A DNA stretch of 61,431 nt, the filler included. It is 5 parts of 5 records of this genome, joined end to end, with 100 filler letters (N's around TTAATTAATTAA, not from the genome) between each part and the next. Parts side by side here need not be neighbours in the genome. Positions count along the whole stretch, not along the records: positions 5,546 to 19,845 come from SRR20825010_1372; 4 more parts are not named here. One strand, written 5' to 3'. The first letter of the stretch is position 1. Each line of letters begins with the position of its first letter. The notes beneath the pieces were generated by a model. The model saw nothing but the letters and a program-made list of their open reading frames with translations. It did no database searches and was not told where the DNA came from. The position numbers and the translations under genes are program-made. Shown here one piece after another: positions 588-55,136 of this stretch.

Positions 588-809
588 ATGGCGTTGATCG
601 ATGTAGTTGCCGAAGTCGCAGGGAAAGTCTGGAAAGTCGAAGCAAAGGTCGGACAGACGTTGGAAGAAGAGGATGACGTCATCATTCTGGAAAGCATGAA
701 AATGGAAATTCCGGTTGGCGCCCCCGCCAATGGAACGCTGAAAGAGCTTCTGGTCGGTGAAGGCGATGCCGTCGCGGAAGATCAGGTCGTTGCACGGATA
801 GAAGCCTAA
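588..809 (+). CDS. Stand-alone biotin/lipoyl carrier protein
   Basis: ILESMKMEIPV biotinylation motif; GAGG RBS at 579-582; ATG at 585 or 588. Confidence 0.85.
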   Translation: MALIDVVAEVAGKVWKVEAKVGQTLEEEDDVIILESMKMEIPVGAPANGTLKELLVGEGDAVAEDQVVARIEA

Positions 810-1222: not shown

Positions 1223-4200
1223 CTATTCCATGCCTTCCAGCGCTTCCTGCAGCAGGAGATAAACTTTCCCAACATCCGCCGTAATGAAAGCGTCTGACAG
1301 CAACTCGGAATGATCAACGGTGCCGGCTTCCGTCATGATTTCACGGAACTCCGATACATACTGATCTGCAAACCGCCGAAAATCACCATTGTCGCGATAG
1401 CGCGCACGGATTTTATCGGCATCACGAGACTTCAGAATTTTCCGAGTAAAGATGCCCTTTTCACCCTTCCGATAGCGCCGCCATAACTCTTCAGACAGGC
1501 TGCTATCCATGATCCGGTTCAAATCGATAGTCAGGGAGTTCAGGTTTTCCATGATAAACGCCGTGGATTTCATGAACTGCTCATTCCGGATCTTATTTTT
1601 CTTTTCCGCCAGACGGTCGGCTTCCTTCTTTGCCCGGGCTGCGGCGGTGGTCAGGCTCGTCGTCTGCTGTTCAATTTTCTGACCGGACAGTAATGCATCT
1701 TCCGCCGCCTTTTCCGCCGCCGTCTTGAAGGCCGCGCTTTCTTCCCTCAAGATTGCGGTGGAATGATTAAGGGTGCTTTCCACCAGCTTCACCGATTGAG
1801 CAAGCTTTTGATGCTGATTTTCAAACTGCTCCCCCAGTGCCCGCGCACTTTCGTTGGCTTTACTGGTGAAGCGAATGAGATCTTCCGCCTGGCCATGGAA
1901 CAACTCGGAAGCGCCGGAACCGGCTTCCTTCACCTGCAAACCAGCCTCCGATATTTTTGCAGTTACCCGGTCAAGGTCATCATGAATATGACGGCGCGTG
2001 TCGTCAATTTCCATCTTGTGTTTTGCTAATGCCTGATCGGCATATTGAATGCCCTTGATCATCAACTCGCTTGCTTTCGCAAGCTCAACCGAGCGGCGAT
2101 GGAATCTCTCGCTTGCTTCCGACGCCTGATCCACCGATTGATCAAGCATGTAGGAACGTTCAGACAGGGTTTTCTCGACCGTCTCCACCTGTTCCGTCAA
2201 CTGACGAGCAATATCGGCAAGAGCCAACGTTTCCTGTTGGAGAATTTCCTCCATAGCTTCGGCATGATCTTTCGCGCGAACAGAGATATCCGCGAGTTCC
2301 TCCATATGGACCTTTGCAGATCCGCTCGCCTCGTTGATATTCGCAAGGGAGGATCGTGTTACTTCAGCAAGCCGGCTCCCCTGGCTCTCGGCCTTGCCGG
2401 CAGCCATGTTCAACTGTTCGATATGATCGGACGCCTGATCCCCCATCGCCCGCAATTCAGCCGAAGCACGCTCCGCCGTTTTGGCAAGTTCGGCAGTTTG
2501 CGAATGCGCCGCCTCGCCAGATTGACGCGCCTGCAAGGTTGCCCGTTCCGCGGTGGCCATAAAGTCTTGATGATACCGTATGGTTTCTTCGATTGCGGCG
2601 GCGAGTTTTCCTTTTGAATGATCGGCGGACGCTCCCAACTCTTTTTGCTGCTTGCTCAAAGCCTCGCTCGCCGATGCAAGGGTGCGGGAGGCTTTGTCGG
2701 CACTCACTTCAATTTCAGAGCCTTCCCGGCGTAATTCCTCTCCGGCCTCGCGCATCTTTCCTGTGACCGCATCGGATGTCAGTTTCAAGTCTTCCGCCTG
2801 GCGTTGCAGGCTGGTACCCACTTCCGTAATGCGGCTGTTTGTGTCCGTGCTGGCTTCAGCCAGCAGCATGACGTCTTTCTCGAGCCGCTCGCCAATCTTT
2901 CGCGACATTTCCAGAATCTGTTGAGAGGCTGATTCAAACACTGCAATTTGATTGCGGAGCTGCTCCTGAATGAGCGTCGTTCGCGCACCGGTGGTCTCGG
3001 AGGCTTCATTCAGGCTCGCCGCATGGCTTGCAAGCTTCTCCCCGAGCTGATCCGCATTCCGCAAGGATTTCTCACCCGCTGCGTCCAGAAGCTGTTGCCC
3101 CTGACGGAGGCTTTGATCGATCGCTTCAAGGCTTTGCCCCGTCGACCTCAGAATATCATCAAGTGCCGCCGACTCGTCCTTCAGCTTCATACTGCTCAGC
3201 AGCATTCTCTCAGTCATCTCGCTGGTTTTGACGGTAAGGTCTTGCGTATTCTCGCGCAGCAGGTCAGCGGATTCCTTGGCGCCGGTCTCTGCCTCCTTCG
3301 CCGCCTGCAACAAACCGCCTTCCCGGCTCTCCAACTGATCAAGCGCCTTATCTACTTCAGCAACGCTGTTCGCAAGGGTATTTCGAAGAGCATTGAGGCG
3401 CGTAACGCCTTCATCGCTCGCAATGCTCAAATCCGTCGTGCTTTGCAACAGGATATCGGCAGTTTTGGAAAGCTCGGTCGAGGAGTTGCGGGAAATCTCC
3501 GCGATTTCCTGGCCGCGTTCGCCCAGATGCGCTGTGCCGTCGTCCAGTTTTTGACGCAGTTGGCTTACAGCGTCTTCCATACTCCTGATTTGGTCGCCAA
3601 GGGCATCCTTGGCTTCCGCCGTCTTATCAAGAGTCTGCGATGCCGTTGCAAATATCTTCTCACTCGTATCGCCGAGGATTTTCGTAATGTCCTGCGATTT
3701 TTCGTCAGCGGTGCGAATGGCGATCTCAAGCGCCGATATCTGCGCAGCTAGTGCGCTTTGAACGGACTTGCTGCGTTCTTCGGTTTCACTCGCGGCATTC
3801 TGCAGACCGTCCGTCTGTAGTGATATGGCGTCATTTAGCCGGTTGCCCTGTTCGTTAATTTTATCGATCAGCGCATTAATCTGCTGTGCCCGGCTTTCGA
3901 GTTCATCCTTTATCCGGTCAGAGGTTTTAAGTAACCCGGCCGTTGCGGAATTGGCAGCAATCCCCTGCTTTTCCAAGTCACCAGAGGCACCTTCAATTCG
4001 AAGTGCCGCTTTTTCCGTTCCGTCCTGAACGGCTTTTGACTGTCGTTCGAGGGTTGCGGTTAGGCGCGCGACACGAATTTCCGCCTCGTTGCTTGGATAA
4101 CCAAGATTAGCCATCAACTGATCAAGCGCGTTGCCCTTCAGGCGAGCTTCCAGCCCTCGGTAAAAATAGCCGAGCAGCAGCCACAGAAAAGCAAGAGGGG

Positions 4201-4456
4201 CAAAAGCACCAAGAAACAGAATTCCCAGATCAAAAGGAACTATCTGAAGAATATCGGGCCAGCCGATTCTTGTATAGACATAGGACCCAACGGCAACAAG
4301 CCAGCCTAACGTTACCAGAACCCCGATACCAAACAACCAGGCAGCCCCGGATAAACCCTTATTTTCAGGCGCTTTTTGCGGCACAGCATTTGCTTTCGCG
4401 GCGGGCACGGACTCGCCGCTGCGAATTTGAACTTTCTGATGTTTTTGCAACATCAC
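1223..4456 (-). CDS. Large membrane-anchored coiled-coil polar protein, TipN / GPR(RgsE)-like
   Basis: Two N-terminal TM helices, about 850 aa of helical coiled-coil, C-terminal LWRRYRKGEKGIFTR..FRRFADQYVSEF..DVGKVYLLL block recalled from GPR/TipN-type proteins. Confidence 0.7.
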   Translation of the reverse strand: MMLQKHQKVQIRSGESVPAAKANAVPQKAPENKGLSGAAWLFGIGVLVTLGWLVAVGSYVYTRIGWPDILQIVPFDLGILFLGAFAPLAFLWLLLGYFYRGLEARLKGNALDQLMANLGYPSNEAEIRVARLTATLERQSKAVQDGTEKAALRIEGASGDLEKQGIAANSATAGLLKTSDRIKDELESRAQQINALIDKINEQGNRLNDAISLQTDGLQNAASETEERSKSVQSALAAQISALEIAIRTADEKSQDITKILGDTSEKIFATASQTLDKTAEAKDALGDQIRSMEDAVSQLRQKLDDGTAHLGERGQEIAEISRNSSTELSKTADILLQSTTDLSIASDEGVTRLNALRNTLANSVAEVDKALDQLESREGGLLQAAKEAETGAKESADLLRENTQDLTVKTSEMTERMLLSSMKLKDESAALDDILRSTGQSLEAIDQSLRQGQQLLDAAGEKSLRNADQLGEKLASHAASLNEASETTGARTTLIQEQLRNQIAVFESASQQILEMSRKIGERLEKDVMLLAEASTDTNSRITEVGTSLQRQAEDLKLTSDAVTGKMREAGEELRREGSEIEVSADKASRTLASASEALSKQQKELGASADHSKGKLAAAIEETIRYHQDFMATAERATLQARQSGEAAHSQTAELAKTAERASAELRAMGDQASDHIEQLNMAAGKAESQGSRLAEVTRSSLANINEASGSAKVHMEELADISVRAKDHAEAMEEILQQETLALADIARQLTEQVETVEKTLSERSYMLDQSVDQASEASERFHRRSVELAKASELMIKGIQYADQALAKHKMEIDDTRRHIHDDLDRVTAKISEAGLQVKEAGSGASELFHGQAEDLIRFTSKANESARALGEQFENQHQKLAQSVKLVESTLNHSTAILREESAAFKTAAEKAAEDALLSGQKIEQQTTSLTTAAARAKKEADRLAEKKNKIRNEQFMKSTAFIMENLNSLTIDLNRIMDSSLSEELWRRYRKGEKGIFTRKILKSRDADKIRARYRDNGDFRRFADQYVSEFREIMTEAGTVDHSELLSDAFITADVGKVYLLLQEALEGME

Positions 4457-4565
4457 CCCTCTCCTACAATACTCTCAAGGAAGGGTTCCGCAAAAGCTTC
4501 GCTGCGTCAAGTTTTCTGATTAATTAGACGCCCCCCCTTCAAACCGGAAATCCCTTCAAAAACGA

Positions 4566-5445
4566 TTACTTGATAACACCTGCGCGCTGCAACTCATCGA
4601 TGGTATCATCCGCAATCCCCCAGTCACGCATCGCATCCACCGTATGCTCCCCCGGAAGGCAGGGCGGGCTCTGTATTGCTGCCTCCGTCCGGCTGAACCG
4701 CGGTGCCGGAGCTGGCTGTATAATCCCGTCATATTCAACGAAGGTTTTCCGATGGGTGTTGTGGGGATGCTCCGTCGCTTCCATAATGGAGAGAACCGGC
4801 GCATAGCACACATCTGTGCCCAGCATGATCTCATCCCATTCATCGCGGGTTTTCGTCTTGAAGACTTCCGTCAACCGGGCCTTGATCACCGGCCAGCTTT
4901 TCGGATCCATTTGCGGCGGCAGATCTTCTTTATCCAGTCCTGTACGCTCTAACAGTTCCTGGTAAAACTTTTTCTCGATGGATCCGATCGAAACATATTT
5001 TCCATCGGCTGTTTCATAGACATCGTAATAATGGGTGCCCGTATCAAGAATATTAACGCCGCGTTCATCTTTCCAGTTGCCGGCAGCCATAAGGCCAAAG
5101 AACATCGTCATCAGGGAGGCGGCGCCGTCGACCATTGCCGTATCGACAACTTGTCCCTTACCGGATTTTTGGGTCTCAAGGATACCGCACACAAGACCGA
5201 GCGCCAAGTAGAGTGCCCCGCCACCAAAATCTCCGACCAAATTAAGCGGAGGAACAGGAGCTTCCCCCTTCCTGCCGATGGAATTCAGAACACCGGACAA
5301 AGCAATATAGTTGATATCATGGCCTGCGGCTTGCGCCATGGGTCCTTCCTGACCCCAACCCGTCATCCGACCGTATACAAGTTTCGGATTTCGCTTGAGT
5401 GCCTCCTCCGGGCCCAAGCCCATCCTTTCCATAACGCCGGGACGA
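4566..5445 (-). CDS. CaiB/BaiF family III CoA-transferase (alpha-methylacyl-CoA racemase-like), 5' truncated
   Basis: RMTGWGQEGP, AGHDINYIA, PPLNLVGDFGGG, QPAPAPRFSRT motifs. Confidence 0.92.
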
Positions 5446-5545
5446 NNNNNNNNNNNNNNNNNNNNNNNNNNNNNNNNNNNNNNNNNNNNTTAATTAATTA
5501 ANNNNNNNNNNNNNNNNNNNNNNNNNNNNNNNNNNNNNNNNNNNN
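5446..5545. other. Artificial contig spacer
   Basis: 44 N + TTAATTAATTAA (stops in all six frames) + 44 N. Confidence 0.99.
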
Positions 5546-5643
5546 GTTGAAAGTTCAAAGTTTAAAGTTGAAAAGCGCGACAGATCGCGGAGTGTTGTTG
5601 TTGGCCCTGCCCGCGTTTCAACTTTGAACTTTCAACTTATAAC
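5546..5643. repeat. Inverted repeat built from tandem heptamers (REP/MITE-like)
   Basis: GTTGAAA GTTCAAA GTTTAAA GTTGAAA (5546-5573) versus TTTCAAC TTTGAAC TTTCAAC TTATAAC (5616-5643). Confidence 0.75.
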
Positions 5644-5686
5644 TGCTTTCCCCCAAACCTTGAACCCGTTCGCGCTTTTTCGTTTT

Positions 5687-5725
5687 CCCCCTCCTCCCCC
5701 CTCCCGGGGGAGGGGGTGGAGGGGG
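5687..5725. repeat. GC-rich hairpin upstream of the peroxidase gene
   Basis: C-rich arm CCCCCTCCTCCCCCCTCCC followed by G-rich arm GGGGGAGGGGGTGGAGGGGG, near-perfect complement. Confidence 0.55.
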
Positions 5726-5795
5726 TGGCCCCGTTGCTAGAGTGCCGTCGTTGTTATCAGACATACCCCGAGAACAAAAACGACGGAGGTTTATC

Positions 5796-8543
5796 ATGGC
5801 TATGTCCCCCTGGGTTACCTGGCCAGCCCTGACCAAGTTTGGTTCACTTGGTGTCATGGGCGCCCTGCTGGTTCTTGCCGGCCAACGGGAAGATCTGCTC
5901 GAAAACAATATGTTCGACATGGAAAACTGGGGTGAAAAAAACGCCAGTATCGTCTGCGATGAGCGCAGCCACGTGGCCCGTACCGAAGACGGCACCTGTA
6001 ATATCCTGGACAATCCGGCGGAAGGCTCTGCCAATGTGAACTTTGGCCGCAACGTGGACCCCGCCTCGTCCTTTGCGGAATCGGAAAGCGGCAACCTGCT
6101 GACGCCGAACCCGCGGGAAGTCAGTAACCTGATCATGTCCCGGGGCGGCGATTTCAAACCCGCCACCACCCTGAACTTCATTGCCACGTCCTGGATCCAG
6201 TTCATGGTTCACGACTGGTTCGATCATGGCCCGCGTACCGATGCCAACCCGATCGAATTCCCGTTGCCGGCGGGCGATGTGCTGGGGTCCGGCACCATGT
6301 CCGTACAGCGTACCCGCCCGGACCCGAGTGTCACTGGCGATGAATCCCTGGTGACCTACGAAAACATCAACACCCACTGGTGGGATGGGTCGCAGCTGTA
6401 CGGCAGCGACAAGGAAACCAACGACGAAGTCCGTTCCTTTGTGGACGGTAAGCTGAAAGTCGACAGTAATGGCCGCTTGCCCACAGACTTCCTCAGTGGC
6501 AAACCCGTTACCGGTTTCAATGAAAACTGGTGGGTGGGCCTGAGCATGCTGCACCACCTGTTCACCCAGGAGCACAACGCCATTGCGGACATGCTCAAGG
6601 CGAACAACCCAGGTGCTACGGATCAGTGGATCTACGATCACGCCCGGCTGATCAATGCTGCCTTGATGGCCAAAATCCACACTGTGGAATGGACTCCGGC
6701 GATTCTTGCCAACCCGGTGCTCGAGCGCGCCATGTACGCCAACTGGTGGGGCCTTGGCGGTGATCGTGACAAGCGCGACAAATTCCAGGATGACCTGGAC
6801 GAGCTGAACAACAACCTGGGTGAACTGGGCGGCATCTTCAACCTGCTCGGTATCGATAACGATCTGGGGCAGGGCGATACCAGCTCCATCGAACACGCCC
6901 TGGCTGGCTTGGTGGGTTCGCGCACCCCGAACAACTACGGCGTGCCTTACACGCTCACCGAAGAGTTTGTCTCCGTGTATCGCATGCACCCGCTGCTGCG
7001 TGATGAGATCAAGGTCTATGACATCGGCTCCAACGTGGTGGACGAAGAAATTCTGCTGCAGGATACCCGTAACGGTGATGCGGAAGATCTGCTGACCGAC
7101 GTGGGCCAGGATCGCCTGTGGTACTCCTTCGGTATTACCCACCCGGGCGCGCTGACACTGAACAACTACCCGGACTTCTTGCGCAACCTGTCCATGCCGC
7201 TGATTGGCGACATTGATATGGCGGCCATCGACGTACTGCGCGACCGCGAACGCGGTGTGCCCCGTTATAACGAGTTCCGTCGTCAGATCGGCCTCAAACC
7301 GCTTACCAGCTTCGAGCAGTTATCCAGTGATCCGCAGCTGGTGGCAGACCTTAAAGCGCTATACAACAACGATATCGAAATGATCGATACGCTGGTGGGC
7401 CAGCTGGCAGAAGAGACTCGCCCGGAAGGCTTCGGCTTTGGGGAAACGTCTTTCCAGATTTTCATCCTCAATGCGTCACGTCGCCTGATGACCGACCGTT
7501 TCTTTACCACCGATTACACCGACGAGGTCTACACCGCTGAAGGGATCGACTGGGTAGAAGAGAACACCATGGTCGACATTATTCGCCGCCACTACCCGAA
7601 CCTGGCCAGCAGTCTGGTAGGCATGGATAACGCTTTCAAACCCTGGGGCCTGAAAATTCCCGAGGACTATCAGTCCTGGTCTGCCCAGGCGAAACAGGAC
7701 CACCTGTGGGTCAACGGCGCCCTGCGTACCAGCTACGAAGACGGTGAAGTACCGGCCATCGAACCCATCGATATTGGTGGCCTGATCAACTCCGTGCTGT
7801 GGAAGAAAGTGCAGGATGTCACCGACGTGAGCCCGCCGGGATACAGCAAGCCGATTCACCCTCGCGGTGCGCTGGCCAAGGTGCAGTTCGTGCCGACGGC
7901 AGGCCATGGCTACACCGGCCTGTTCCAGGGGGCAGATCACGGCCTGCTGCGGCTATCTGTGACTGGCGATCCGTCGGACCGTGGCTTTGCACCGGGGCTG
8001 GCGCTGAAATTGATGGTGGACGGCAAGCGTTCCGAGAACGTGTCTGCGCTCTATACCCTTAGCGGGCAGGGCGATAACCACAATATCTTTGCCAATGAAC
8101 TGTCCAACTACGTACAGCCTGAAGTGAACGAAACTCTTGGCACAACGACGCTGTTCTCGCTGGTGTCCAGAAAGCCGACGCTGGTCGTCATGAGTGACAT
8201 GGCCAAGGTGAACCAGGATGGTTCCCCGGTGAGCAATGCCAACACCCCATCACAGGTTTATTTCGTGCCCAACGGTGATCTGAAGAATTCCATCAGCACC
8301 GCGCCCCACGACTTCCGTGACGACCTGACCGCCCTGAATCCCGGGACCAAGGTGTATGACGTTTACGCGACCTCCAAGTCCATCAAAACGTCCATCTGGC
8401 CCTGGGTGACCGCACGCTACGCCCGCGAGCGCCGCAACAGCGCTACCAAAGTCGGCGAGCTGGTCATGGCATCCCCGTTCACCCTGTCCCAGTTCGGTGA
8501 CACCGGCATCTTCTTCAAGCACCAACGGTACGAAGATCGCTAA
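5796..8543 (+). CDS. Fatty-acid alpha-dioxygenase-type heme peroxidase fused to a C-terminal catalase-like domain
   Basis: GGAGG RBS at 5785; SWIQFMVHDWFDH, WWDGSQLYGS, AKIHTVEWT, SVYRMH, RDRERGVPRYNEFRR, SRRLMTDRFFT; then KPIHPRG..GLF..LRLS..GLALK..SEN. Confidence 0.85.
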   Translation: MAMSPWVTWPALTKFGSLGVMGALLVLAGQREDLLENNMFDMENWGEKNASIVCDERSHVARTEDGTCNILDNPAEGSANVNFGRNVDPASSFAESESGNLLTPNPREVSNLIMSRGGDFKPATTLNFIATSWIQFMVHDWFDHGPRTDANPIEFPLPAGDVLGSGTMSVQRTRPDPSVTGDESLVTYENINTHWWDGSQLYGSDKETNDEVRSFVDGKLKVDSNGRLPTDFLSGKPVTGFNENWWVGLSMLHHLFTQEHNAIADMLKANNPGATDQWIYDHARLINAALMAKIHTVEWTPAILANPVLERAMYANWWGLGGDRDKRDKFQDDLDELNNNLGELGGIFNLLGIDNDLGQGDTSSIEHALAGLVGSRTPNNYGVPYTLTEEFVSVYRMHPLLRDEIKVYDIGSNVVDEEILLQDTRNGDAEDLLTDVGQDRLWYSFGITHPGALTLNNYPDFLRNLSMPLIGDIDMAAIDVLRDRERGVPRYNEFRRQIGLKPLTSFEQLSSDPQLVADLKALYNNDIEMIDTLVGQLAEETRPEGFGFGETSFQIFILNASRRLMTDRFFTTDYTDEVYTAEGIDWVEENTMVDIIRRHYPNLASSLVGMDNAFKPWGLKIPEDYQSWSAQAKQDHLWVNGALRTSYEDGEVPAIEPIDIGGLINSVLWKKVQDVTDVSPPGYSKPIHPRGALAKVQFVPTAGHGYTGLFQGADHGLLRLSVTGDPSDRGFAPGLALKLMVDGKRSENVSALYTLSGQGDNHNIFANELSNYVQPEVNETLGTTTLFSLVSRKPTLVVMSDMAKVNQDGSPVSNANTPSQVYFVPNGDLKNSISTAPHDFRDDLTALNPGTKVYDVYATSKSIKTSIWPWVTARYARERRNSATKVGELVMASPFTLSQFGDTGIFFKHQRYEDR

Positions 8544-8574: not shown

Positions 8575-8609
8575 AAGCCCGGGCGACGCAAGTCCCCCGG
8601 GCTTTTTTT
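8575..8609 (+). terminator. Intrinsic terminator
   Basis: AAGCCCGGG..GAC-GCAA-GTC..CCCGGGCTT stem followed by T-tract. Confidence 0.85.
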
Positions 8610-8755
8610 GTGTCTGCTGCCCGGGCCTCAGGGGTGTATTGGCGCGTGAGAACTGATTATGGCGGTTCTGTTTGAGCTGGGGCTTGGTTATCTGTATAAG
8701 TTGATCAGTGTCTTTGAGTTTTTGTTCTGTTTTTTGAACATGACATAGGTGATTT

Positions 8756-9991
8756 GTGGCCAAACTCTTCAATGCTCGCCTTGCTGTATTCTCGACTTTT
8801 CTTGCGGCCGGTTCAGCGCCTGTTTTTGGCGCCAGTCTGCCCGATGGGGAGAGTCGCGGAACGGTTGAAACGCTGTGCTCTACTTGTCACGCGGTTGATC
8901 GCATTCCTGAAAGCCTGGGGTATAGCCGCAGTGGTTGGCTGGCGTTAATCGAGACCATGATTGACCTGTCCGACAGTCCCGAACGCCGAGATGGCATTGC
9001 GGATTACCTTGCGGAACATTTTCCACCGAACCAGCGCCGTGCCCCAACGCTTGTCGACGGTGATACGCGAGTTGAGTTTCATGAATGGGTCGTGCCGACC
9101 CGTGGCCAACGCTCGCGTGATCCGGTTGAAGCACCTGATGGCTCGATATGGTGGGCGGGTCAATGGGGCAACCTGATCGGTCAGATCGACCCGGCAAGCG
9201 GAGAGATGCGTGAGTATGCGCTTCCTGCAGGGGCAATGCCCCATTCCGTGACGGTGGGTAGTGATGGTGACGTGTGGTTTATGGGCAACAAAAACGGGAC
9301 TGTGGGCCGACTTAGTCCGGCCAGTGGGGATATCAAAGTCTACGATATGCCTGATCCCAACGCTCGTGATCCACATACCGCGGTATTTGATGCCAATGGC
9401 CTGCTCTGGTTTACGCTCCAGCATTCCAATCAGGTTGGCCGGCTTGATCCGCGTAATGGTGATATTCGGTTGAAGTCGATGCCGACGGTAGGTTCACGAC
9501 CTTACGGCATTAAGGTCGACGCGAAAGGCATTCCCTGGGTTGCCTGTAATGGAAGTAACTGTCTGGTGAAAATCGAGCCAGAGACGATGGAGATGACAGA
9601 AATTACGCTGCCCCATGAAGAGACAACCGTGCGCCGGCTGGATATCGCGGATAACGGCATGATCTGGTATGTGAATTCCGGGCGTGGCCGGTTGGGGCGT
9701 TATGACCCGGAGAACGGTGAAATCAAGGAGTGGCCGTCGCCGAGCGGCCCGACTTCTCATCCTTACGCAATCGCGATCGTGGATGGAATTGTCTGGTATA
9801 ACGAGTCGGGCATGCGCCCGGACCCGCTTGTGCGTTTCGACCCTGCCACTGAGACATTTCAGAGCTGGCCGATCCCATCCGGCGAGATATTTTCCGGTAT
9901 TGTGCGCCACATGCGCCCGACACGTGACGGAGATCTGCTGATCCACCAGAGTGCAACGAACCGCATTATTCGGGTCGAGATAGACGACTGA
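8756..9991 (+). CDS. Exported c-type cytochrome fused to a Vgb-lyase-like beta-propeller
   Basis: Signal peptide, CSTCH heme motif, repeated P(H/Y)...DG.(V/I)WF..GR(L/Y)DP..G blades. Confidence 0.8.
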   Translation: MAKLFNARLAVFSTFLAAGSAPVFGASLPDGESRGTVETLCSTCHAVDRIPESLGYSRSGWLALIETMIDLSDSPERRDGIADYLAEHFPPNQRRAPTLVDGDTRVEFHEWVVPTRGQRSRDPVEAPDGSIWWAGQWGNLIGQIDPASGEMREYALPAGAMPHSVTVGSDGDVWFMGNKNGTVGRLSPASGDIKVYDMPDPNARDPHTAVFDANGLLWFTLQHSNQVGRLDPRNGDIRLKSMPTVGSRPYGIKVDAKGIPWVACNGSNCLVKIEPETMEMTEITLPHEETTVRRLDIADNGMIWYVNSGRGRLGRYDPENGEIKEWPSPSGPTSHPYAIAIVDGIVWYNESGMRPDPLVRFDPATETFQSWPIPSGEIFSGIVRHMRPTRDGDLLIHQSATNRIIRVEIDD

Positions 9992-10816: not shown

Positions 10817-12157
10817 TTAGTGGTCGTGATCATGGTCATCGTCGTCATGATCGTGCTCGTCTTCGTCGCTATGTTCTTCTTCATGGTCGCTATCAAGACC
10901 GGCCCAGGCCAATGCTGCGGGCGGGAAGGTCAGGCTGAGTGGGGATTCCAGGCTGCCTTCTTCAAGATGCACGACAACGATGGCGTTGTTATCGGTATCC
11001 GAAAGAAAGACATGCGCAGGCTCGCCGGCCACGGCCATCTGGGTATTGCCCGGGGCGATGGCATCTTCCACGTGGGCGTGCTCACTCCAGTCAGCGGTGT
11101 CGAAAATACGCAGGTCGCCGGCATCATCCAGCAACACAAGGTGTTCCCCGTGGGGATCCAGGCGGTGGCTTTCCAGTGTTACGGCGGCGCCTTCTGTCCA
11201 GTCCAGTTCCTCGGCGTCACCGTCTTCCGGGTGGATAACCAGGATACGGTCACCGGCATAACCCACAAAGTGGCTCAGTTCGTGATGACTGTCGAAACTG
11301 CCGATACGCTCGCCGGCCCCCAGGCCAAGAGTGGCGTTGGTGACTTTCTCGGCGGTGAAATCCTCTCCGTCCTGATGGACGATCAGGATGCCGTCGCTAC
11401 AGCCGAACACCGAGTAGTCTTCGTTGGAGCCGGCGCCATGAAGGTCCGGGCAAGTCGGCGCGATGGTGTCTTCCTTGTGATAGTGATCGCCATGCTGATG
11501 GTAGACATCAACGGTTTCCGGGAGGCCGGAAGCGGCAGTGCGGAAGGTGGCCAGCAGTACATCGCCGCGGGGCTCGGCCACACCATGGTGGGCACTGGCG
11601 AGGGTCTGGCTGGCTACGGTGGAAGCCGTTTCCAGCGATTCATCAGTGAGCAGTTCCACCTTGGCCATGACGGCGCTGGCGGCATCGCCGTCATAGAACA
11701 GGGCGGCCTGTTCTCCGTGGACCCGGAAGTGGGTGGGCGCCGGGCCGGTGAGGGTGCCCGCAAAGGTGGGGATCACTTCGTCCACATGGTCGTCATGCAG
11801 GTAGAGCCCGCCATCGACGATCTGTACCTGGTTGTCGTCTCGTTGCATGGCCAGGACAAAGCGCTTGCCCGGGCTGGTGTAAAGCGCGCTGGCGTCGTGG
11901 TCCAGGGAGAGGGTGCCGGGTAGCAGGGCGCCGGCCTCCAGGTCATACACATACAGCTGGGTGCCGTCGTCATCGGCGGCAATCACCAGTCGGCCGGGAT
12001 GATCACTCTCGGCATGGTCGTGTTCATCTTCACTGCTGCCCAGCGAGCTGGTGCCGGTTTCGTTACAGCCGGCCATGGCGAGGGCGGCAAGCAGGGACAG
12101 GGGCAGGGCTGCGTTTTGTTTCAGGTTTTTCATCATGCGTTGCATGGTGTTCTCCAT
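10817..12157 (-). CDS. AztD-like zinc-binding beta-propeller lipoprotein with His/Asp-rich tail
   Basis: Lipobox AMAGC; PTHF, AHHGVA, CPDLHG, FGCSDG motifs; C-terminus HEEEHSDEDEHDHDDDDHDHDH. Confidence 0.75.
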   Translation of the reverse strand: MENTMQRMMKNLKQNAALPLSLLAALAMAGCNETGTSSLGSSEDEHDHAESDHPGRLVIAADDDGTQLYVYDLEAGALLPGTLSLDHDASALYTSPGKRFVLAMQRDDNQVQIVDGGLYLHDDHVDEVIPTFAGTLTGPAPTHFRVHGEQAALFYDGDAASAVMAKVELLTDESLETASTVASQTLASAHHGVAEPRGDVLLATFRTAASGLPETVDVYHQHGDHYHKEDTIAPTCPDLHGAGSNEDYSVFGCSDGILIVHQDGEDFTAEKVTNATLGLGAGERIGSFDSHHELSHFVGYAGDRILVIHPEDGDAEELDWTEGAAVTLESHRLDPHGEHLVLLDDAGDLRIFDTADWSEHAHVEDAIAPGNTQMAVAGEPAHVFLSDTDNNAIVVVHLEEGSLESPLSLTFPPAALAWAGLDSDHEEEHSDEDEHDHDDDDHDHDH

Positions 12158-12218: not shown

Positions 12219-14285
12219 TTAAAATTCAATGCGGGTACCCACGGTGACGTTGCGACCTGGCTCCGGCACGGTGCTGGCAAGGAAGGAAGAGTGGTTGAAT
12301 ACTTCTTCTCCTAACAGGTTGTTGCCGCGCACATAGAAGGTGTAGCGCTGGTCGCCACGGAGCCGGTAGCTAAGGGTCGCGTTGACCATGTCGTAGGACG
12401 GGGTGGTGTCCTCAAAGCCAGCGATCTGGTCCTGTGCAAAGCTGCGGTAGAACTCCAGTTCTCCGTCGAAGTTGCCCAAGTAGCTATTGAGACGCGTGCC
12501 TAGCCGTTTGGCGGGGATGCGGGGCAGGTAGCCGCCATCATCGAAGGTCGCGCGCACCGTATCACCAAAGACCGTAATCCCTACCGGGTCGATGCCGTAG
12601 TAGCTTAGCGAGGCTTCGGCACCGGTGAAGGTGGCGTCACGCTGGCTGTACTTGATCAGACGAAAGTCTTCGATCTGGTCGAGGGTACGGGCATAGATGT
12701 AGTTGTTGATGCGGTTTTCGAAGATGCCCAGATCAAACAGCCAGTCGCCCTGGGTCTTGCGCAGGTTCAGGTTGGCGTTGAGGCTGACTTCGTCATCCAG
12801 ATCGCTCTGCCCGCCACCGCAGTCGCTGAGCAGGCCGCACTCGTAAGTGTTGGTCGCCAGATGAACGCCTTCTGCATAGAGCTCCTGGGCGCTGGGTGCG
12901 CGGCCAGAATGACCCACAGACAACACCAACTCATAACCTGGCACAAAGGCCCAGTTGGCCGCGCCGGAGAAAGAGGCATTGTCCGCGGTGACTTTGGCAA
13001 GAGCCTGGCCATTGCGGTCGTCCGGTGTTTGCGTCAGGTGCTCCTGGCGCGCCCCAAGCTCAAAGGACCATTGCTCATTGAGGATGTATTCCTCTACCGC
13101 AAAGACGGCAATGGATTCGGTCTCGGTCTTCGGCACGAAGGCTTCGCCACCCAGTGAGCTGAAGTCGAATTGGGTGTACTGCAGGCCCACAACGCCGCGC
13201 CAGTTACCCAGCGGTTTGTGTTCCACTTCCAGTCGCGCATCGCCGCCCCTGTTGGTGAAGGTGCTGCCGATGGCGCCTTCCTCAATTTCGTGGTGGCGAT
13301 AATCGGTGTGATTGCCACGGAAGCGAATGGCGGTCACCCCGGCGAAGGGCTCGCGGTATTCACCACGGGCATCCACCCGGCGGCTGGCCAGGTCCACATA
13401 GGGGACAACATCGCCATGGTCATGGGTATGTGAAGAGGTGGGGCAGCTCAGGCTGGTGCCGCTGGCCTCGCACTCCTCGAATTCGTGGCTGTGGCCGGGC
13501 AGGCCGTAGTTGTCGCGGCGATAGCTGTAGGCCATGCCGAAGTAGCCCTGATCCCCGATCCAGGAGGCGCCAATGCTGCCATTGTCGCTTTCCGCATAGG
13601 TGCCGGGCACGGTGAGTTCTTCGAAGCCATTCACTTCGTAGTCGTCTGCGTCGCGGCGACTGCCTTCCACCCGAAACACCAGGTTGTCGGTGGCAGAGAC
13701 GGTGAGGCCGGCGGCAGTGGCGTTCTCATCGGCCACGGTATTGGCCCGGGCTGCCACGAAACCCTCCACGTCTTCGCGAGGGCGCTGGGTGGGGATGCGG
13801 CTGTCCAGCACATTCACAACACCACCGCTGGCACCGCTGCCATAGAGCAGGGTGGACGGGCCGCGCAGCACTTCTATCTGGCGCGCCAGCAGGGGGTCCA
13901 CCGTGACCGCGTGATCAGGGGAGATACTGGAGGCATCCAGTACCTGGGAGCCATCATTGAGCACCCCCACTCGTGGGCCGCCCTGACCGCGAATGACGGG
14001 CCGGCTGGCGCCGCCGCCAAAGGTGTCACTGTGGACACCGGGCTGGTCTTTCAGGGTTTCCCCGAGGGTGTTCTGGCCTTTCTGGGTGAGGGTTTGCTGG
14101 TCCATCACCGAATAGGGTGTGCTGGGGCTGTCACTGCCCAGCGGCAGGGCGGACACGTCCACTTGCTTCAGCTCGTGGGCCTGGTCGGCGGCTGCGCTGT
14201 TGTTTTCAGCATCGGCCAATACTGCCGTGGGCACCAGCAGGGCCACGGCGACGCACCCGGTCAGGGTCTGGCGTCGAAATATCAT
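12219..14285 (-). CDS. TonB-dependent receptor, ZnuD-like
   Basis: Plug motifs FGGGASRPVIRG, SPDHAV, IEVLRGPSTLLYG; His/Cys loop GHSHEFEEC..C..HTHDH; DYRHHEIEE; C-terminal PGRN..IEF. Confidence 0.88.
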   Translation of the reverse strand: MIFRRQTLTGCVAVALLVPTAVLADAENNSAAADQAHELKQVDVSALPLGSDSPSTPYSVMDQQTLTQKGQNTLGETLKDQPGVHSDTFGGGASRPVIRGQGGPRVGVLNDGSQVLDASSISPDHAVTVDPLLARQIEVLRGPSTLLYGSGASGGVVNVLDSRIPTQRPREDVEGFVAARANTVADENATAAGLTVSATDNLVFRVEGSRRDADDYEVNGFEELTVPGTYAESDNGSIGASWIGDQGYFGMAYSYRRDNYGLPGHSHEFEECEASGTSLSCPTSSHTHDHGDVVPYVDLASRRVDARGEYREPFAGVTAIRFRGNHTDYRHHEIEEGAIGSTFTNRGGDARLEVEHKPLGNWRGVVGLQYTQFDFSSLGGEAFVPKTETESIAVFAVEEYILNEQWSFELGARQEHLTQTPDDRNGQALAKVTADNASFSGAANWAFVPGYELVLSVGHSGRAPSAQELYAEGVHLATNTYECGLLSDCGGGQSDLDDEVSLNANLNLRKTQGDWLFDLGIFENRINNYIYARTLDQIEDFRLIKYSQRDATFTGAEASLSYYGIDPVGITVFGDTVRATFDDGGYLPRIPAKRLGTRLNSYLGNFDGELEFYRSFAQDQIAGFEDTTPSYDMVNATLSYRLRGDQRYTFYVRGNNLLGEEVFNHSSFLASTVPEPGRNVTVGTRIEF

Positions 14286-14290
14286 AACTA

Positions 14291-14501
14291 CCTCTGTCTC
14301 TAGCGTTCATGCAGGGCATGAATGAGGGCGCGAGTAAAAGGGCGCAGCCGAAAAGAAAGCAGCTGGCCGGACTCGTGCCGGAAACACGTTTGTTGCTGAT
14401 CGCAGGCAGGCGCAGCAGGCCCGGCTCTCATTGAGAGGGGCAAAAGGCGATGCGCCAGTATGATCAGGGATCAGTAACGGGAATCAGGCAGAGACAGGAG
14501 G
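14291..14501 (-). promoter_or_regulatory. Long-range anti-SD/SD pairing between the uORF 3' end and the receptor RBS
   Basis: mRNA CCUCCUGUCUCU (14501-14490, codons P-P-V-S) complements AGAGACAGAGG (14301-14291, the receptor SD region): 11 bp with one bulge. Confidence 0.7.
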
Positions 14502-14804
14502 GCCGCGGGGTGGATAGGGGTTGCGTTCGCTGCGGTGAACCACGGTGGTGGTGAGAGGCAGCGGGGTGGGTTCCACCCGTTGAGTAACGGGGGTGTTGTA
14601 AACGCTGGGCAAGGCCAGCAGGCCGTGCCCATGGGTACATACCTGGCAATCAGCGGAAGCCAGCAGCTCCTTGGTGGGGCTGTGTTGGCCGGCGTCGATG
14701 TGGGCTGGGGCGTGCCATGCCAGCAGCAGCTGGGCACAGAACAGCCCGAGCACCAGAGACAGGGAAAGGCCGCGACGGTATTGGCTCAGCATGGCGGGGA
14801 TCAT
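14484..14804 (-). CDS. DUF2946-like (CruR/CutF-type) upstream regulatory ORF
   Basis: N-terminal hydrophobic segment, His-rich linker, CQVCTHGH, Pro-rich C-terminus YPPRGPPVSA; directly upstream of a TonB receptor. Confidence 0.8.
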   Translation of the reverse strand: MIPAMLSQYRRGLSLSLVLGLFCAQLLLAWHAPAHIDAGQHSPTKELLASADCQVCTHGHGLLALPSVYNTPVTQRVEPTPLPLTTTVVHRSERNPYPPRGPPVSA

Positions 14805-15082
14805 TGTGACGTACCCCCGTTATTGTCACCGCATGGCGATGTGCATTGGTGCGCTTCCGGGTCAGGCTCGGTGCCGGGCACGTAGTCAAAACCACCCGGG
14901 TGCCAGGGATGGCACTTGCACAGTCGCTTCGCTGCCAGTGCGCTGCCGCGCAGGCTGCCATGGGCCACTACCGCCTGCCGGGCATATTCCGAGCAGGTGG
15001 GGTAGAAGCGGCATTGATTGCCTATCCAGGGGCTTAGCGCCTTCTGGTATAGCCAGATGGCGCCAAGCAGAAGCGATTTCAC
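14801..15082 (-). CDS. yidD: YidD-family protein (orphan copy) with a Cys-containing tail
   Basis: GTG start; YQKALSP..CRFYPTCSEY..G.L..KRLCKCHPWHPGGFDYVP; stop overlaps the uORF start (ATGA). Confidence 0.88.
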   Translation of the reverse strand: MKSLLLGAIWLYQKALSPWIGNQCRFYPTCSEYARQAVVAHGSLRGSALAAKRLCKCHPWHPGGFDYVPGTEPDPEAHQCTSPCGDNNGGTSQ

Positions 15083-15202
15083 GAGCGAATTTCTGCCTGT
15101 CGTTAAATGTTGTGAGTTGTAAAAAATCCATGATATAGCCATCGCGTGGGGAGATACCAGCGCTGTTCCATGGTCGTAATACGCACAGTGATAAAAAAAC
15201 GT

Positions 15203-15217
15203 TGTGATTTCATGACA
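15203..15217. promoter_or_regulatory. Possible Zur-type operator
   Basis: TGTGAT-TTC-ATGACA fits TGTnAT-N3-ATnACA; lies in the divergent yidD/START intergenic region. Confidence 0.35.
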
Positions 15218-15258
15218 CTGCAACGGCAATGGAAGCAGCAAGGTAGCAAGGAGAGACC

Positions 15259-15963
15259 ATGAAAAAAGCCACAGGATGGACCCGCCCGGTACGGGTATCA
15301 GCACTGGCCGTTACCCTGATGTTGTCTGCCGGTTCCATGGCAGCAGATTGGGAAACCGTGAACGAAGGCAGCGCCCGCACGGATATCAGCACCTATGAAA
15401 AAGCCATGGAGGACAGCCCGGTAAAAGCTTTTCGGGGTGTCACCGAAGTGCAGGCGCCGGTATTGAGCGTGTTGGCGGTAATGGCCGATGCCAGTGCGTG
15501 CTCCGAATGGTTGTATCAGTGCCAGTCGCTGGAGCTGCGTGATAACGATCAGGCCTACATTCGTTTCAAAGGCATCTGGCCGGCCAAGGACCGCGATGCC
15601 CTGATCAAGACCCGGACCACCCAGAATGAGGAAACCGGTGCCATTACCCTGGCCTCCCACGCGGTGGACGGTGAGCCGGAGCAGGAGGGTTATGTGCGCG
15701 TTGCCGCGCTGGAAGACCAGTTCATCCTGACGCCGCTGGACAATGGCTGGACCCGCATCGAGTTTGAAACTTTTATCGACCCGGGCGGCAATGTGTCATC
15801 GGTGGCGAACGTGATTTCCCACAAGGCGCCCCAGGAAACCCTGCAGGGATTGCGTGAGATGGCCAGCAGTGAAACCTATCAGAATGCCAAGCTGGATAGC
15901 GCCCTGAAACGCTACCCGGAATTGAAAGGCATGGACTTGCCGCAGAGCCATACACCGGAATGA
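15259..15963 (+). CDS. Exported START-domain (lipid-binding) protein
   Basis: Signal peptide; SPVKAFRG, WPAKDRD, DPGG motifs; GGAG RBS. Confidence 0.85.
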   Translation: MKKATGWTRPVRVSALAVTLMLSAGSMAADWETVNEGSARTDISTYEKAMEDSPVKAFRGVTEVQAPVLSVLAVMADASACSEWLYQCQSLELRDNDQAYIRFKGIWPAKDRDALIKTRTTQNEETGAITLASHAVDGEPEQEGYVRVAALEDQFILTPLDNGWTRIEFETFIDPGGNVSSVANVISHKAPQETLQGLREMASSETYQNAKLDSALKRYPELKGMDLPQSHTPE

Positions 15964-16120
15964 ACAAGGCTGTTGGCTCTAATAGGGTTACCAGGGTTAA
16001 TAAAGAGGAGCGCCGGTAATTGGGGCCAATCCCCCGGCCGGCGCTTGTTTCCCCGCCTCCTGGCCGCATACTGCGGCCAGCATGCTGTTTAGCGTATTTT
16101 GACAAGTGAGGAGAAAACTT

Positions 16121-16801
16121 TTGCGAGCACTGTTTGTGGCACTGTTGCTGGCCCCCCTTATGCTGGCGAACCCGGTCTGGGCGGCGAATTGGAAAACCAA
16201 TCATGAAGGCAAGGACAAGGGGGATATCACCACCTATGTGCGCGATGTCTCCAATAGCCCGGTCAAAGCCTTCAAGGGCATTGTCGAGGTGAAGGCGTCA
16301 GCCACCTCGGTACTGGCGGTGATCACCGCCGTGGACACCTTCCCCGAATGGATTTTCCAGAGTCAGGGCGCCAAGCGGTTATCCGTGGAAGACCGTGAAG
16401 AAATTCACATGCGCTTTAATGGTATCTGGCCGGTGTCTGACCGGGACGTGGTGCTGGCCAATACCCTGAGCCAGAACGAAGACACCGGTTCCATTACATT
16501 ACACAGCGTGAACGCCGATGGCGTGTTGGAAAAGCAGGATGGTTTCGTGCGCATCCCCGCGCTGGATAACCAGTTTGTTATTACACCCATGGAAGATGGC
16601 TGGGTGCGGGTGCAGTTTGAAACCTTCGTGGACCCGGGCGGCAGCGTGCCGGTGTGGCTGGCCAATCTGGTGGCGACCAAGGCACCGCTGGAAACCTTGC
16701 AGGGGTTGAAAGTTCAGCTGGAAAAGCCGCGTTTCGCCAATGCTACACGGAAAGATTTGCCGCCACTGCCGGGGATGGACACACTGTCTCTTGAGGACTG
16801 A
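16121..16801 (+). CDS. Exported START-domain protein, tandem paralog
   Basis: GAGGAG then in-frame TTG at 16121; SPVKAFKG, WPVSDRD, DPGGSVPVWLAN. Confidence 0.85.
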   Translation: MRALFVALLLAPLMLANPVWAANWKTNHEGKDKGDITTYVRDVSNSPVKAFKGIVEVKASATSVLAVITAVDTFPEWIFQSQGAKRLSVEDREEIHMRFNGIWPVSDRDVVLANTLSQNEDTGSITLHSVNADGVLEKQDGFVRIPALDNQFVITPMEDGWVRVQFETFVDPGGSVPVWLANLVATKAPLETLQGLKVQLEKPRFANATRKDLPPLPGMDTLSLED

Positions 16802-19845: not shown

Positions 19846-19945
19846 NNNNNNNNNNNNNNNNNNNNNNNNNNNNNNNNNNNNNNNNNNNNTTAATTAATTA
19901 ANNNNNNNNNNNNNNNNNNNNNNNNNNNNNNNNNNNNNNNNNNNN
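19846..19945. other. Artificial contig spacer
   Basis: 44 N + TTAATTAATTAA + 44 N. Confidence 0.99.
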
Positions 19946-32972: not shown

Positions 32973-33072
32973 NNNNNNNNNNNNNNNNNNNNNNNNNNNN
33001 NNNNNNNNNNNNNNNNTTAATTAATTAANNNNNNNNNNNNNNNNNNNNNNNNNNNNNNNNNNNNNNNNNNNN
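32973..33072. other. Artificial contig spacer
   Basis: 44 N + TTAATTAATTAA + 44 N. Confidence 0.99.
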
Positions 33073-55036: not shown

Positions 55037-55136
55037 NNNNNNNNNNNNNNNNNNNNNNNNNNNNNNNNNNNNNNNNNNNNTTAATTAATTAANNNNNNNN
55101 NNNNNNNNNNNNNNNNNNNNNNNNNNNNNNNNNNNN
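55037..55136. other. Artificial contig spacer
   Basis: 44 N + TTAATTAATTAA + 44 N. Confidence 0.99.

Follow-up and report, generated by a model that had tools for sequence, protein, structure and literature searches.

The gene examined here lies in a 61,431-nt stretch of DNA (the window) and encodes a protein of 915 residues, in which a fatty-acid alpha-dioxygenase is followed directly by a second domain; the question it raises is what that second domain is and what it might do for the first. The window consists of at least five draft contigs joined end to end, and the gene order across the joints is therefore not biological; the fusion gene is carried by the contig at 5546-19845, with its ATG about 250 nt from the contig start (Table 1). 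The evidence set out below suggests that the gene encodes a two-module fatty-acid alpha-oxidation enzyme, composed of an N-terminal alpha-dioxygenase (alpha-DOX, module 1) and of a C-terminal domain with a predicted, shortened catalase-type fold (module 2, or the tail). The reading that we prefer, with a probability of about 0.6, is that the tail processes the product of the N-terminal domain, a 2-hydroperoxy fatty acid.

By all the sequence features that could be tested, module 1 is an alpha-dioxygenase, as a first, sequence-only reading of this DNA had proposed. It matches the Pfam model An_peroxidase (PF03098) with 348.6 bits against a cut-off of 25, and its best PDB matches, over residues 31-618, are the alpha-DOXs of rice (4kvj, E 6.2e-116) and Arabidopsis (4hhr, E 9.9e-111), the next families being lactoperoxidase (E 1e-32) and the cyclooxygenases (about 1e-13). 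In the alignment with the rice enzyme, FMVHDWFDH pairs with FMVHDWMDH, AKIHTVEWT with AKVHTIDWT, and ASRRLMTDRFFT with ASRRLEADRFFT; in the mutant chain 4kvl, a Phe stands at the position of Tyr395. Furthermore, the distal and proximal His, Tyr395, His295 and the pair Arg562/Arg563 are invariant across the 24 fused and unfused relatives of one alignment (A3). We take the roles of these residues (distal His, catalytic Tyr, proximal His, carboxylate-binding His and Arg) to be those described for the rice and Arabidopsis structures. The motifs that the sequence-only reading had listed are found where it placed them, and those of the N-terminal part match rice residue for residue; the one offset is of 3 nt, as the interval 6978-6989 given for VYRMH covers YRMH and leaves out the first codon.

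Module 2 belongs to a family that counts 1411 clusters in a library clustered at 50% identity (E ≤ 1e-3), mostly proteins of 300-350 residues, and a Pfam scan of 30 members found no domain over the tail region. The AlphaFold2 model of the tail, built on a 61-sequence alignment, has a predicted local distance difference test score (pLDDT) of 94.4 and a predicted template-modelling score (pTM) of 0.93. The top Foldseek matches of this model are to the 33-kDa catalase-related protein of Mycobacterium avium subsp. paratuberculosis (E 9.3e-6 and 3.7e-5), and the lower ranks contain only catalases, allene oxide synthase and chanoclavine synthase, at template-modelling (TM) scores of about 0.37 or less. 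Because the model is confident and the matches concur, the assignment of a catalase-type fold is solid as a prediction, and the catalase-like character that had been read from the letters alone is borne out at the level of the predicted fold. At the level of sequence, hhalign places the tail profile on a set of 11 catalases from related genomes weakly, with Prob 13% and P 0.0021 over 292 columns, and the profile of the 61 sequences (A1) on single catalase-type proteins also weakly, with Prob 0.7% and 17%. An Atlas search gave one cluster named 'catalase family protein', at 0.91, which is a lead only.

Which parts of the catalase pocket the family retains can be judged from residue counts over 346 tail-family sequences. 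Position 685 is Lys in 333 of them and Arg in 12; His688 is kept in 345, Arg719 and Lys738 in all 346, and Ser721 in 340, so that the catalase-like pattern noticed earlier in the tail goes beyond chance, four of its residues (H688, R719, S721 and K738) being retained in 340-346 of the sequences. Asn748, the candidate for the distal Asn, is Asn in 321 and Asp in 25, with Gln758 kept in 340 and both Asn761 and Asn763 conserved nearby. Passages of PMC5617202 describe R64, R102 and R360 of the coral allene oxide synthase (cAOS) as haem-coordinating, T66, H67 and N137 as distal, and Y353 as the proximal ligand; of these, R64, H67 and R102 correspond to K685, H688 and R719 of the tail, and N137 may also have a counterpart. 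At the other end of the domain, Asp902 is kept in 344 sequences, His909 in 343 and the Arg of FFKHQR in 285. If the tail holds a haem, His909, backed by Asp902 and Arg911, would be the candidate proximal ligand.

The union of the two modules is conserved. A word-indexed search (E ≤ 1e-3) found 215 database relatives; among the 120 of them that were listed, the tail is 59-87% identical and the length is mostly around 915 residues, with some shorter entries, several genera are represented among those with a named source, and the latter proteins are called only 'peroxidase' or 'peroxidase family protein'. With one genome taken per species, 142 stretches encode a relative and 78 loci, complete chromosomes included, were kept. 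The N- and C-terminal parts share a single uninterrupted open reading frame in 76 of these, and 75 are from Gammaproteobacteria (25 Pseudomonadaceae, 19 Alcanivoracaceae, 10 Moraxellaceae, 5 Marinobacteraceae and others). In the four related genomes searched, the tail family has no member outside the fusion gene, and in a 64-row tree the fused C-domains form a single clade (18 of 18 rows) with a support of 99 in the Shimodaira-Hasegawa-like approximate likelihood ratio test (SH-aLRT). The linker between the modules is essentially absent, because the last aligned position of rice alpha-DOX, 3 residues from the end of the chain, pairs with residue 618, and the first conserved motif of the tail family (LPxxY) starts at residue 621.

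The two modules exist as separate genes, too. The stand-alone proteins closest to the tail have 292-338 residues and share 41-46% identity with it, those with a name being cyanobacterial 'hypothetical proteins' (Calothrix sp. PCC 6303 is among the organisms with a listed relative), and only 2 of the 84 closest have a hydrophobic N-terminus. A metagenome scan with 28 stand-alone relatives as queries, mostly with cyanobacterial names, returned 27 loci, and in 15 of them a separate alpha-DOX gene lies directly beside the stand-alone tail gene, 13 times in tandem on the same strand and twice divergently. These counts include the pairs L094/L095 and L097/L101, which look like duplicates, and L108, whose companion is a fragment only. 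The alpha-DOXs of the split loci are 44-46% identical to module 1 (37% in L102, and 55% over a partial sequence in L099), and the stand-alone genes are 39-44% identical to module 2. As for the 12 loci without an adjoining alpha-DOX, 8 have less than 700 nt of upstream sequence. Fusion in one lineage and adjacency in another support the view that the two proteins work together as a functional couple, an arrangement that would be the signature of sequential action; the link between the two domains that the sequence-only reading had drawn from a single gene is thus met with in both forms. In the C-domain tree the fused clade is not resolved relative to the gene-linked one, and L102 is placed elsewhere; the association of alpha-DOX and tail may be old or may have arisen repeatedly.

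From these observations we infer, for module 2, a possible haem, a substrate, a product, channelling between the modules and a physiological role, and the mechanism would be the following. Module 1, a haem alpha-dioxygenase, would oxygenate a free fatty acid at C-2 with O2, by means of Tyr395, and so yield the 2-hydroperoxy acid. Module 2, which appears to keep the peroxide-handling side of a catalase pocket (Lys685, His688, Arg719, Ser721 and probably Asn748), would then take this unstable 2-hydroperoxide to one defined product, most likely the one-carbon-shorter aldehyde with release of CO2 by a lyase-type cleavage, or alternatively the 2-hydroxy acid by reduction or the 2-oxo acid by dehydration. 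The physiological role may be the alpha-oxidation of alkane-derived fatty acids, the beta-methyl-branched ones included, because many of the hosts belong to genera that we presume to be marine hydrocarbon degraders. As to the kind of chemistry expected from module 2, catalase-related enzymes such as cAOS and the coral hydroperoxide lyase (cHPL) are described, in passages of PMC5617202, as cleaving the O-O bond of a hydroperoxide and then rearranging or fragmenting the chain.

Several results weigh against a hydroperoxide-processing tail. Residues 619-915 have no match at E ≤ 10 in Pfam, in NCBIfam or, by phmmer, in the PDB, and the A1 profile retrieves no catalase from the PDB, its best match being SKP1, unrelated or due to chance, at E 1.4. 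The superposition of the tail model on its structural matches covers about 190-200 of 297 residues at 3.7-4.3 Å, with a TM-score of 0.37 at best. Moreover, the proximal helix with its Tyr and Arg (RxxxY), present in the catalase-fold enzymes compared, is absent from the tail. In structural alignments the last tail residue (296/297 in the model) pairs with position 348-352 of human catalase, whose proximal residues we take to be R354 and Y358, with position 336 of cAOS and with position 285 of 3e4w; in hhalign the proximal Tyr of the template falls past the end of the domain, and the family consensus stops at FFxHxR. Because the structural alignments end before the helix and the consensus stops where it does, the helix is missing from the whole family, and the lack of an RxxxY motif that the sequence alone had suggested is real, since the domain stops short of the helix that would bear it. 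The tail therefore combines a catalase fold and distal-side residues, yet lacks a defining feature of catalases and of catalase-related haemoproteins. Also, the residue before the distal His is Ile in 270 of the 346 sequences, Leu in 47, Val in 14, Met in 11 and Phe in 4, and not Thr.

To these points must be added those that concern the coupling itself. Most of the wider tail family is not tied to alpha-DOX, and a crude hydrophobicity screen finds a hydrophobic, signal-like N-terminus in 85 of 116 stand-alone representatives. Four of the loci from the metagenome scan (L103-L105 and L107), which hold more distant relatives (31-34% identity), have at least 2 kb of upstream sequence and no alpha-DOX; the neighbours of the distant members L103-L107 (transposases, TetR, old-yellow-enzyme, ATPase) give no functional clue. 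In the tree, the fused clade is not resolved as the sister of the gene-linked clade, deep branches being supported at 74. A complex prediction with module 1 (residues 31-618), module 2 and two haems gave a median score of 0.37, against 0.00 for the best of three controls; of 78 solved complexes 51 attained the mark, as did 2 of 108 mismatched pairs, and at scores of 0.60 or less only 5 of the 78 solved complexes attained it, together with all 4 of the mismatches that passed. Between runs, at least 9% of the contacts are shared, and the partner is poorly folded (pLDDT 53-57). The prediction gives weak support, of little weight, to a contact between the two modules. Finally, the 2-hydroperoxide of alpha-DOX is described in passages of PMC8720084 as decaying spontaneously to the aldehyde, and a partner enzyme is therefore not chemically required.

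The first alternative builds on the same observations and takes the tail to be a haem-free, non-catalytic module, a beta-barrel of catalase descent put to another use, serving for fatty-acid binding and delivery, for anchoring at a membrane or at the oil-water boundary, or for oligomerisation; its conserved Lys, Arg and His would then hold a carboxylate instead of haem propionates. The absence of the helix with the proximal ligand, the failure of every catalase sequence model to match, the signal-like N-termini of the crude screen (85 of 116) and the distant members without a dioxygenase beside them all speak for it, as does a likeness of the tail model to generic lipid-binding barrels, at low Z (3.6-3.9 for lipocalins). 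However, a role as carrier does not easily explain why the near-invariant polar set coincides with the distal set of catalases, and we regard a haem-free tail as unlikely.

According to a second alternative the tail handles H2O2, as a small catalase or peroxidase that either sets the peroxide tone by which the dioxygenase is activated or protects the haem of the latter. Alpha-DOX is reportedly activated by peroxide, a point that the title of a 2013 article by Zhu and co-workers is said to make, and in true catalases the residue before the distal His is generally aliphatic. The tail keeps the distal His, Asn and Arg-Ser set, and the residue before its distal His is likewise aliphatic, unlike the Thr of cAOS (passages of PMC5617202). 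True catalase chemistry, however, needs a Tyr-ligated haem, which is missing here; the strict coupling to alpha-DOX, in the fused as in the split form, suits a pathway partner better than a general scavenger; and ordinary catalases are also present in 2 of the 4 genomes searched. On balance, H2O2 as the substrate of the tail seems improbable. Small catalase-related proteins of about 401 residues, with an RxxxY-type C-terminal motif by eye, were seen in L083 (80-2532) and in L082 (1198-2403), and the one in L083 follows a 403-residue open reading frame that contains CxxCH.

A fusion created by faulty assembly or gene calling, or a gene in decay, is already refuted: the window does consist of chained draft contigs, and the gene does lie close to the end of one, but the same intact frame recurs in the independent loci counted above, complete chromosomes among them, the tail keeps the identity given above across the listed relatives of several named genera, and contigs of independent runs span the junction.

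An 876-residue LuxR/MalT-type protein with AAA_16, TPR and GerE domains, which we presume to be similar to the alkane regulator AlkS, is encoded in the same locus as the fusion, mostly directly upstream. It is present in 63 of the 78 loci by comparison of open reading frames and in 65 by tblastn, 52 times on the same strand and 13 times on the opposite one, and this adjacent AlkS-like protein probably controls expression of the fusion. Its absence from the window is due only to the contig, which begins some 250 nt ahead of the ATG; the regulator is found upstream of the fusion gene in an Alcanivorax metagenome-assembled genome (L001), in which the fusion protein is 100% identical and the DNA 98.8% identical to those of the window. 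Furthermore, two RNA-Seq libraries from one seawater study contain contigs that cover most of the gene at about 99% identity and that span the domain boundary at 7650 (a record of 1416 nt in X15 and one of 1062 nt in X14); such contigs mean presence in the library and are not proof of transcription, and the small-share runs X16-X19 are not taken as evidence of habitat. The main text of a Thalassolituus proteomics paper mentions no peroxidase or dioxygenase, although its supplements may list the protein.

In its most extended form, the proposal would be that the tail founds a catalase-fold class without the Tyr helix, with a His909-ligated haem or haem-free, that the fusion carries out an enzyme-controlled decarboxylative cleavage, and that, together with the AlkS-like regulator, it forms a CoA-independent alpha-oxidation module able to pass beta-methyl branches, as in phytanic-type acids that come from isoprenoid alkanes, in marine oil degraders. 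Taken as a whole, this chain of suppositions is doubtful.

How far the fusion departs from known systems can be seen from a comparison of its parts. Module 1 has the fold family, the catalytic residues and the expected chemistry of the plant and cyanobacterial alpha-DOXs (rice 4kvj, Arabidopsis 4hhr; CalDOX, LepDOX and CsDOX), but the hosts of the fusion are Gammaproteobacteria, and the solved rice chain ends 3 residues past the point where the tail starts, whereas the fusion adds a second domain of 297 residues. No published study of an alpha-DOX fused to a tyrosine-less catalase-fold domain was found in a literature search, in line with the earlier statement that no characterised example was known. 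In the passages searched of two alpha-DOX papers (PMC8720084 and PMC9305512), there is no word of an additional C-terminal domain, of a fusion, of a neighbouring gene or of an operon, and the putative proteobacterial alpha-dioxygenases appear only as branches of trees.

The tail has its nearest structural match in the 33-kDa mycobacterial protein (3e4w, 3e4y), with which it shares 15-17% identity. The alignment stops at residue 284-285 of about 301-303, and the C-terminal end beyond it has no counterpart in the tail, just as about 40 N-terminal residues of the tail have none in the mycobacterial protein.

The pairing of a dioxygenase with a partner that converts its hydroperoxide is a known theme. 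One instance is the 10S-dioxygenase and lyase of Nostoc, said to be the work of Brash and colleagues in 2014. In Nostoc punctiforme, as passages of PMC13049297 report, a linoleate 10S-dioxygenase has a catalase-related 10S-hydroperoxide lyase as its neighbour; here too a haem dioxygenase of the cyclooxygenase family is genetically coupled to a catalase-fold partner, and the Nostoc partner consumes the hydroperoxide. However, the Nostoc proteins are encoded by separate genes, the oxygenation is at C-10 of linoleate and the partner is a catalase-related haemoprotein, whereas the fusion has an alpha (C-2) dioxygenase and a fused partner that has no catalase sequence match and is devoid of the proximal Tyr.

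In the coral AOS-LOX (1u5u, 3dy5), by contrast, the catalase-fold domain comes first and the oxygen is added by a non-haem-iron lipoxygenase. A Thr before the distal His is reportedly a general hallmark of the hydroperoxide converters. Coral AOS has T66, Y353 and R360 (passages of PMC5617202), and the fusion tail is without all three. What the tail does have in common with hydroperoxide converters is genetic coupling to a dioxygenase, here the one that would supply the substrate (a fusion in 76 of 78 loci, adjacency in 15 of 27). The fungal DOX-P450 fusions (linoleate diol synthases and Ppo, in passages of PMC13049297) have the same order of parts, that is, an N-terminal dioxygenase of the cyclooxygenase family and then a C-terminal domain that transforms the hydroperoxide, but the partner is a Cys-ligated P450 and C18 unsaturated acids are oxygenated at C-8, C-9 or C-10. 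Thus, the theme of dioxygenase plus hydroperoxide converter is known from Nostoc, coral AOS-LOX and fungal DOX-P450, and the new elements are the alpha type of the first enzyme, the dioxygenase, and, for the second, a catalase-fold family that is unannotated and tyrosine-less.

The interest of the fusion is both practical and general. Alpha-DOXs are under development as biocatalysts for fragrance aldehydes, according to passages of PMC9305512 and PMC8720084. A fused or adjacent partner suggests that nature controls the step in which the 2-hydroperoxide breaks down, and the partner module could alter the yield or the product of such biocatalysts. For a family of 1411 clusters with no Pfam model, the fusion offers a first functional handle, and the tail family illustrates the extent to which a catalase fold can be reduced. 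In addition, a role in the degradation of hydrocarbons or branched lipids can be tested directly, given the host range and the AlkS-like regulator.

Table 1. Features of the fusion gene and of the contig chain (positions along the window)
Feature	Residues	Position (nt)	Strand	Basis
Fusion gene, 915-residue alpha-dioxygenase / predicted mini-catalase-fold protein	1-915	5796..8543	+	open frame; stop codon 8541-8543
N-domain, fatty-acid alpha-dioxygenase, peroxidase-cyclooxygenase superfamily	1-618	5796..7649	+	Pfam and PDB matches
HDWFDH, distal haem His139	139-144	6210..6227	+	aligned with rice alpha-DOX IQFMVHDWMDH; invariant in A3
KIHT, His295, carboxylate-side His	293-296	6672..6683	+	aligned with rice AKVHTIDWT; invariant in A3
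VYRMH, catalytic Tyr395 and proximal haem His398	394-398	6975..6989	+	aligned with 4kvj SVYRMH; invariant in A3
SRRL, carboxylate-binding pair Arg562/Arg563	561-564	7476..7487	+	aligned with rice ASRRLEADRFFT; invariant in A3
NAFKPW	612-617	end at 7646	+	motif position check
C-domain, predicted shortened catalase fold, unannotated family	619-915	7650..8540	+	predicted fold
K685-P-I-H688-P-R-G, putative counterpart of the catalase R-V-V-H distal His motif		7845..7868	+	hhalign pairs it with RVVHARG
IHPRG	687-691		+	motif position check
R719-L-S721 (RLS), putative counterpart of catalase R-F-S	719-721	7950..7958	+	hhalign
GLALK	734-738		+	hhalign pairs it with GFALKF
N748, candidate counterpart of the distal Asn	748	8037..8039	+	pairs with second N of GNN in a low-confidence hhalign stretch
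FFKHQR with His909 and Arg911, near-invariant C-terminal motif; domain end 6 residues on		8511..8528	+	conservation
GGAGG ribosome-binding site, 6 nt 5' of the ATG		5785..5789	+	direct reading of sequence
Terminator-like hairpin and T-run, 47 nt 3' of the stop		8590..8614	+	consensus scan; pattern match only
Artificial contig joints, N44-TTAATTAATTAA-N44		5446-5545, 19846-19945, 32973-33072, 55037-55136	.	read from window sequence

The boundaries of the gene deserve some comment, as other starts were considered. Conservation among 45 full-length relatives begins at residue 6 of the protein counted from the ATG, and on this account neither the hydrophobic stretch at residues 16-28 was adopted as a signal peptide nor an upstream GTG at 5742 with an RRRF motif as the start of a Tat signal; the alignment with rice alpha-DOX, which starts directly after that hydrophobic stretch, was also counted against both. 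A CoA-transferase family III gene at 4566-5445 (-), similar by eye to alpha-methylacyl-CoA racemase and cut at its 5' end by a contig joint, had been considered as a neighbour that hinted at branched-acid metabolism. It was dropped because the joint at 5446-5545 is a spacer between the two, and the gene on the left is therefore not a true neighbour of the fusion.

The edge of the contig is marked by a palindromic element of 98 nt (5546-5643), with 32-nt arms that are 84% complementary and a single copy in the window; many contigs from four sequencing runs diverge or end there, as expected of a dispersed repeat that breaks assemblies. Between this element and the gene start lies a C-rich/G-rich hairpin (5687-5725; 19-nt arms, 1-nt loop). 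In the comparison of L001 (14446-18448) with the window (at about 10240), some 4 kb are present in one and absent from the other, the difference being bounded by an overlap of about 180 nt between two BLAST pieces.

Some further observations concern the surroundings of the fusion and of the split pair in other genomes. In L048, from Pseudomonas alcaligenes-type genomes, type II secretion operons (4393-6993 and 12957-15739) flank the pair of regulator and fusion, with GspC/GspD on one side and GspE/GspF on the other, and homologues of these genes occur in about 15-23 of the 78 loci. Lipid-type genes flank the alpha-DOX/companion pair in subsets of the split loci (L084 11073-14941, L094 689-1852, L097 2215-7195). 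The flanking genes encode patatin-like lipases, a GMC oxidoreductase, two RoxA-like dihaem cytochrome c proteins and an old-yellow-enzyme, which may form a larger lipid-oxidation cluster; the lipases, the GMC oxidoreductase and the old-yellow-enzyme place the split pair among lipid genes, which speaks for the preferred reading. Other fused forms of the tail family were seen among the database proteins P0146, P0138, P0147 and P0262: one, of 1356 residues, starts with An_peroxidase and carries the tail at 1045-1352, two have 564-584 residues with an unassigned N-terminal part of 250-280 residues, and one is a fusion with DUF2515.

As for the other genes of the window, the fusion gene is followed at 8756-9991 (+) by one for a 411-residue protein with a signal-like N-terminus, a CxxCH haem c motif and a beta-propeller of the Vgb-lyase/SGL type, an adjacency that is not conserved in other loci. 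On the opposite strand, 10817-12157 (-) encodes a lipoprotein-like protein of 446 residues, with a tail rich in His, Asp and Glu and no Pfam match, next to a TonB-dependent receptor (12219-14285, -), and the two look like a metal-uptake pair. At 1223-4456 (-), there is a gene for a protein of 1077 residues that belongs to no Pfam family and is rich in Ala, Glu, Gln and Ser, probably a coiled-coil membrane protein. Lastly, two tandem paralogous genes at 15259-15963 (+) and 16106-16801 (+) encode START-domain proteins, both with signal-like N-termini.

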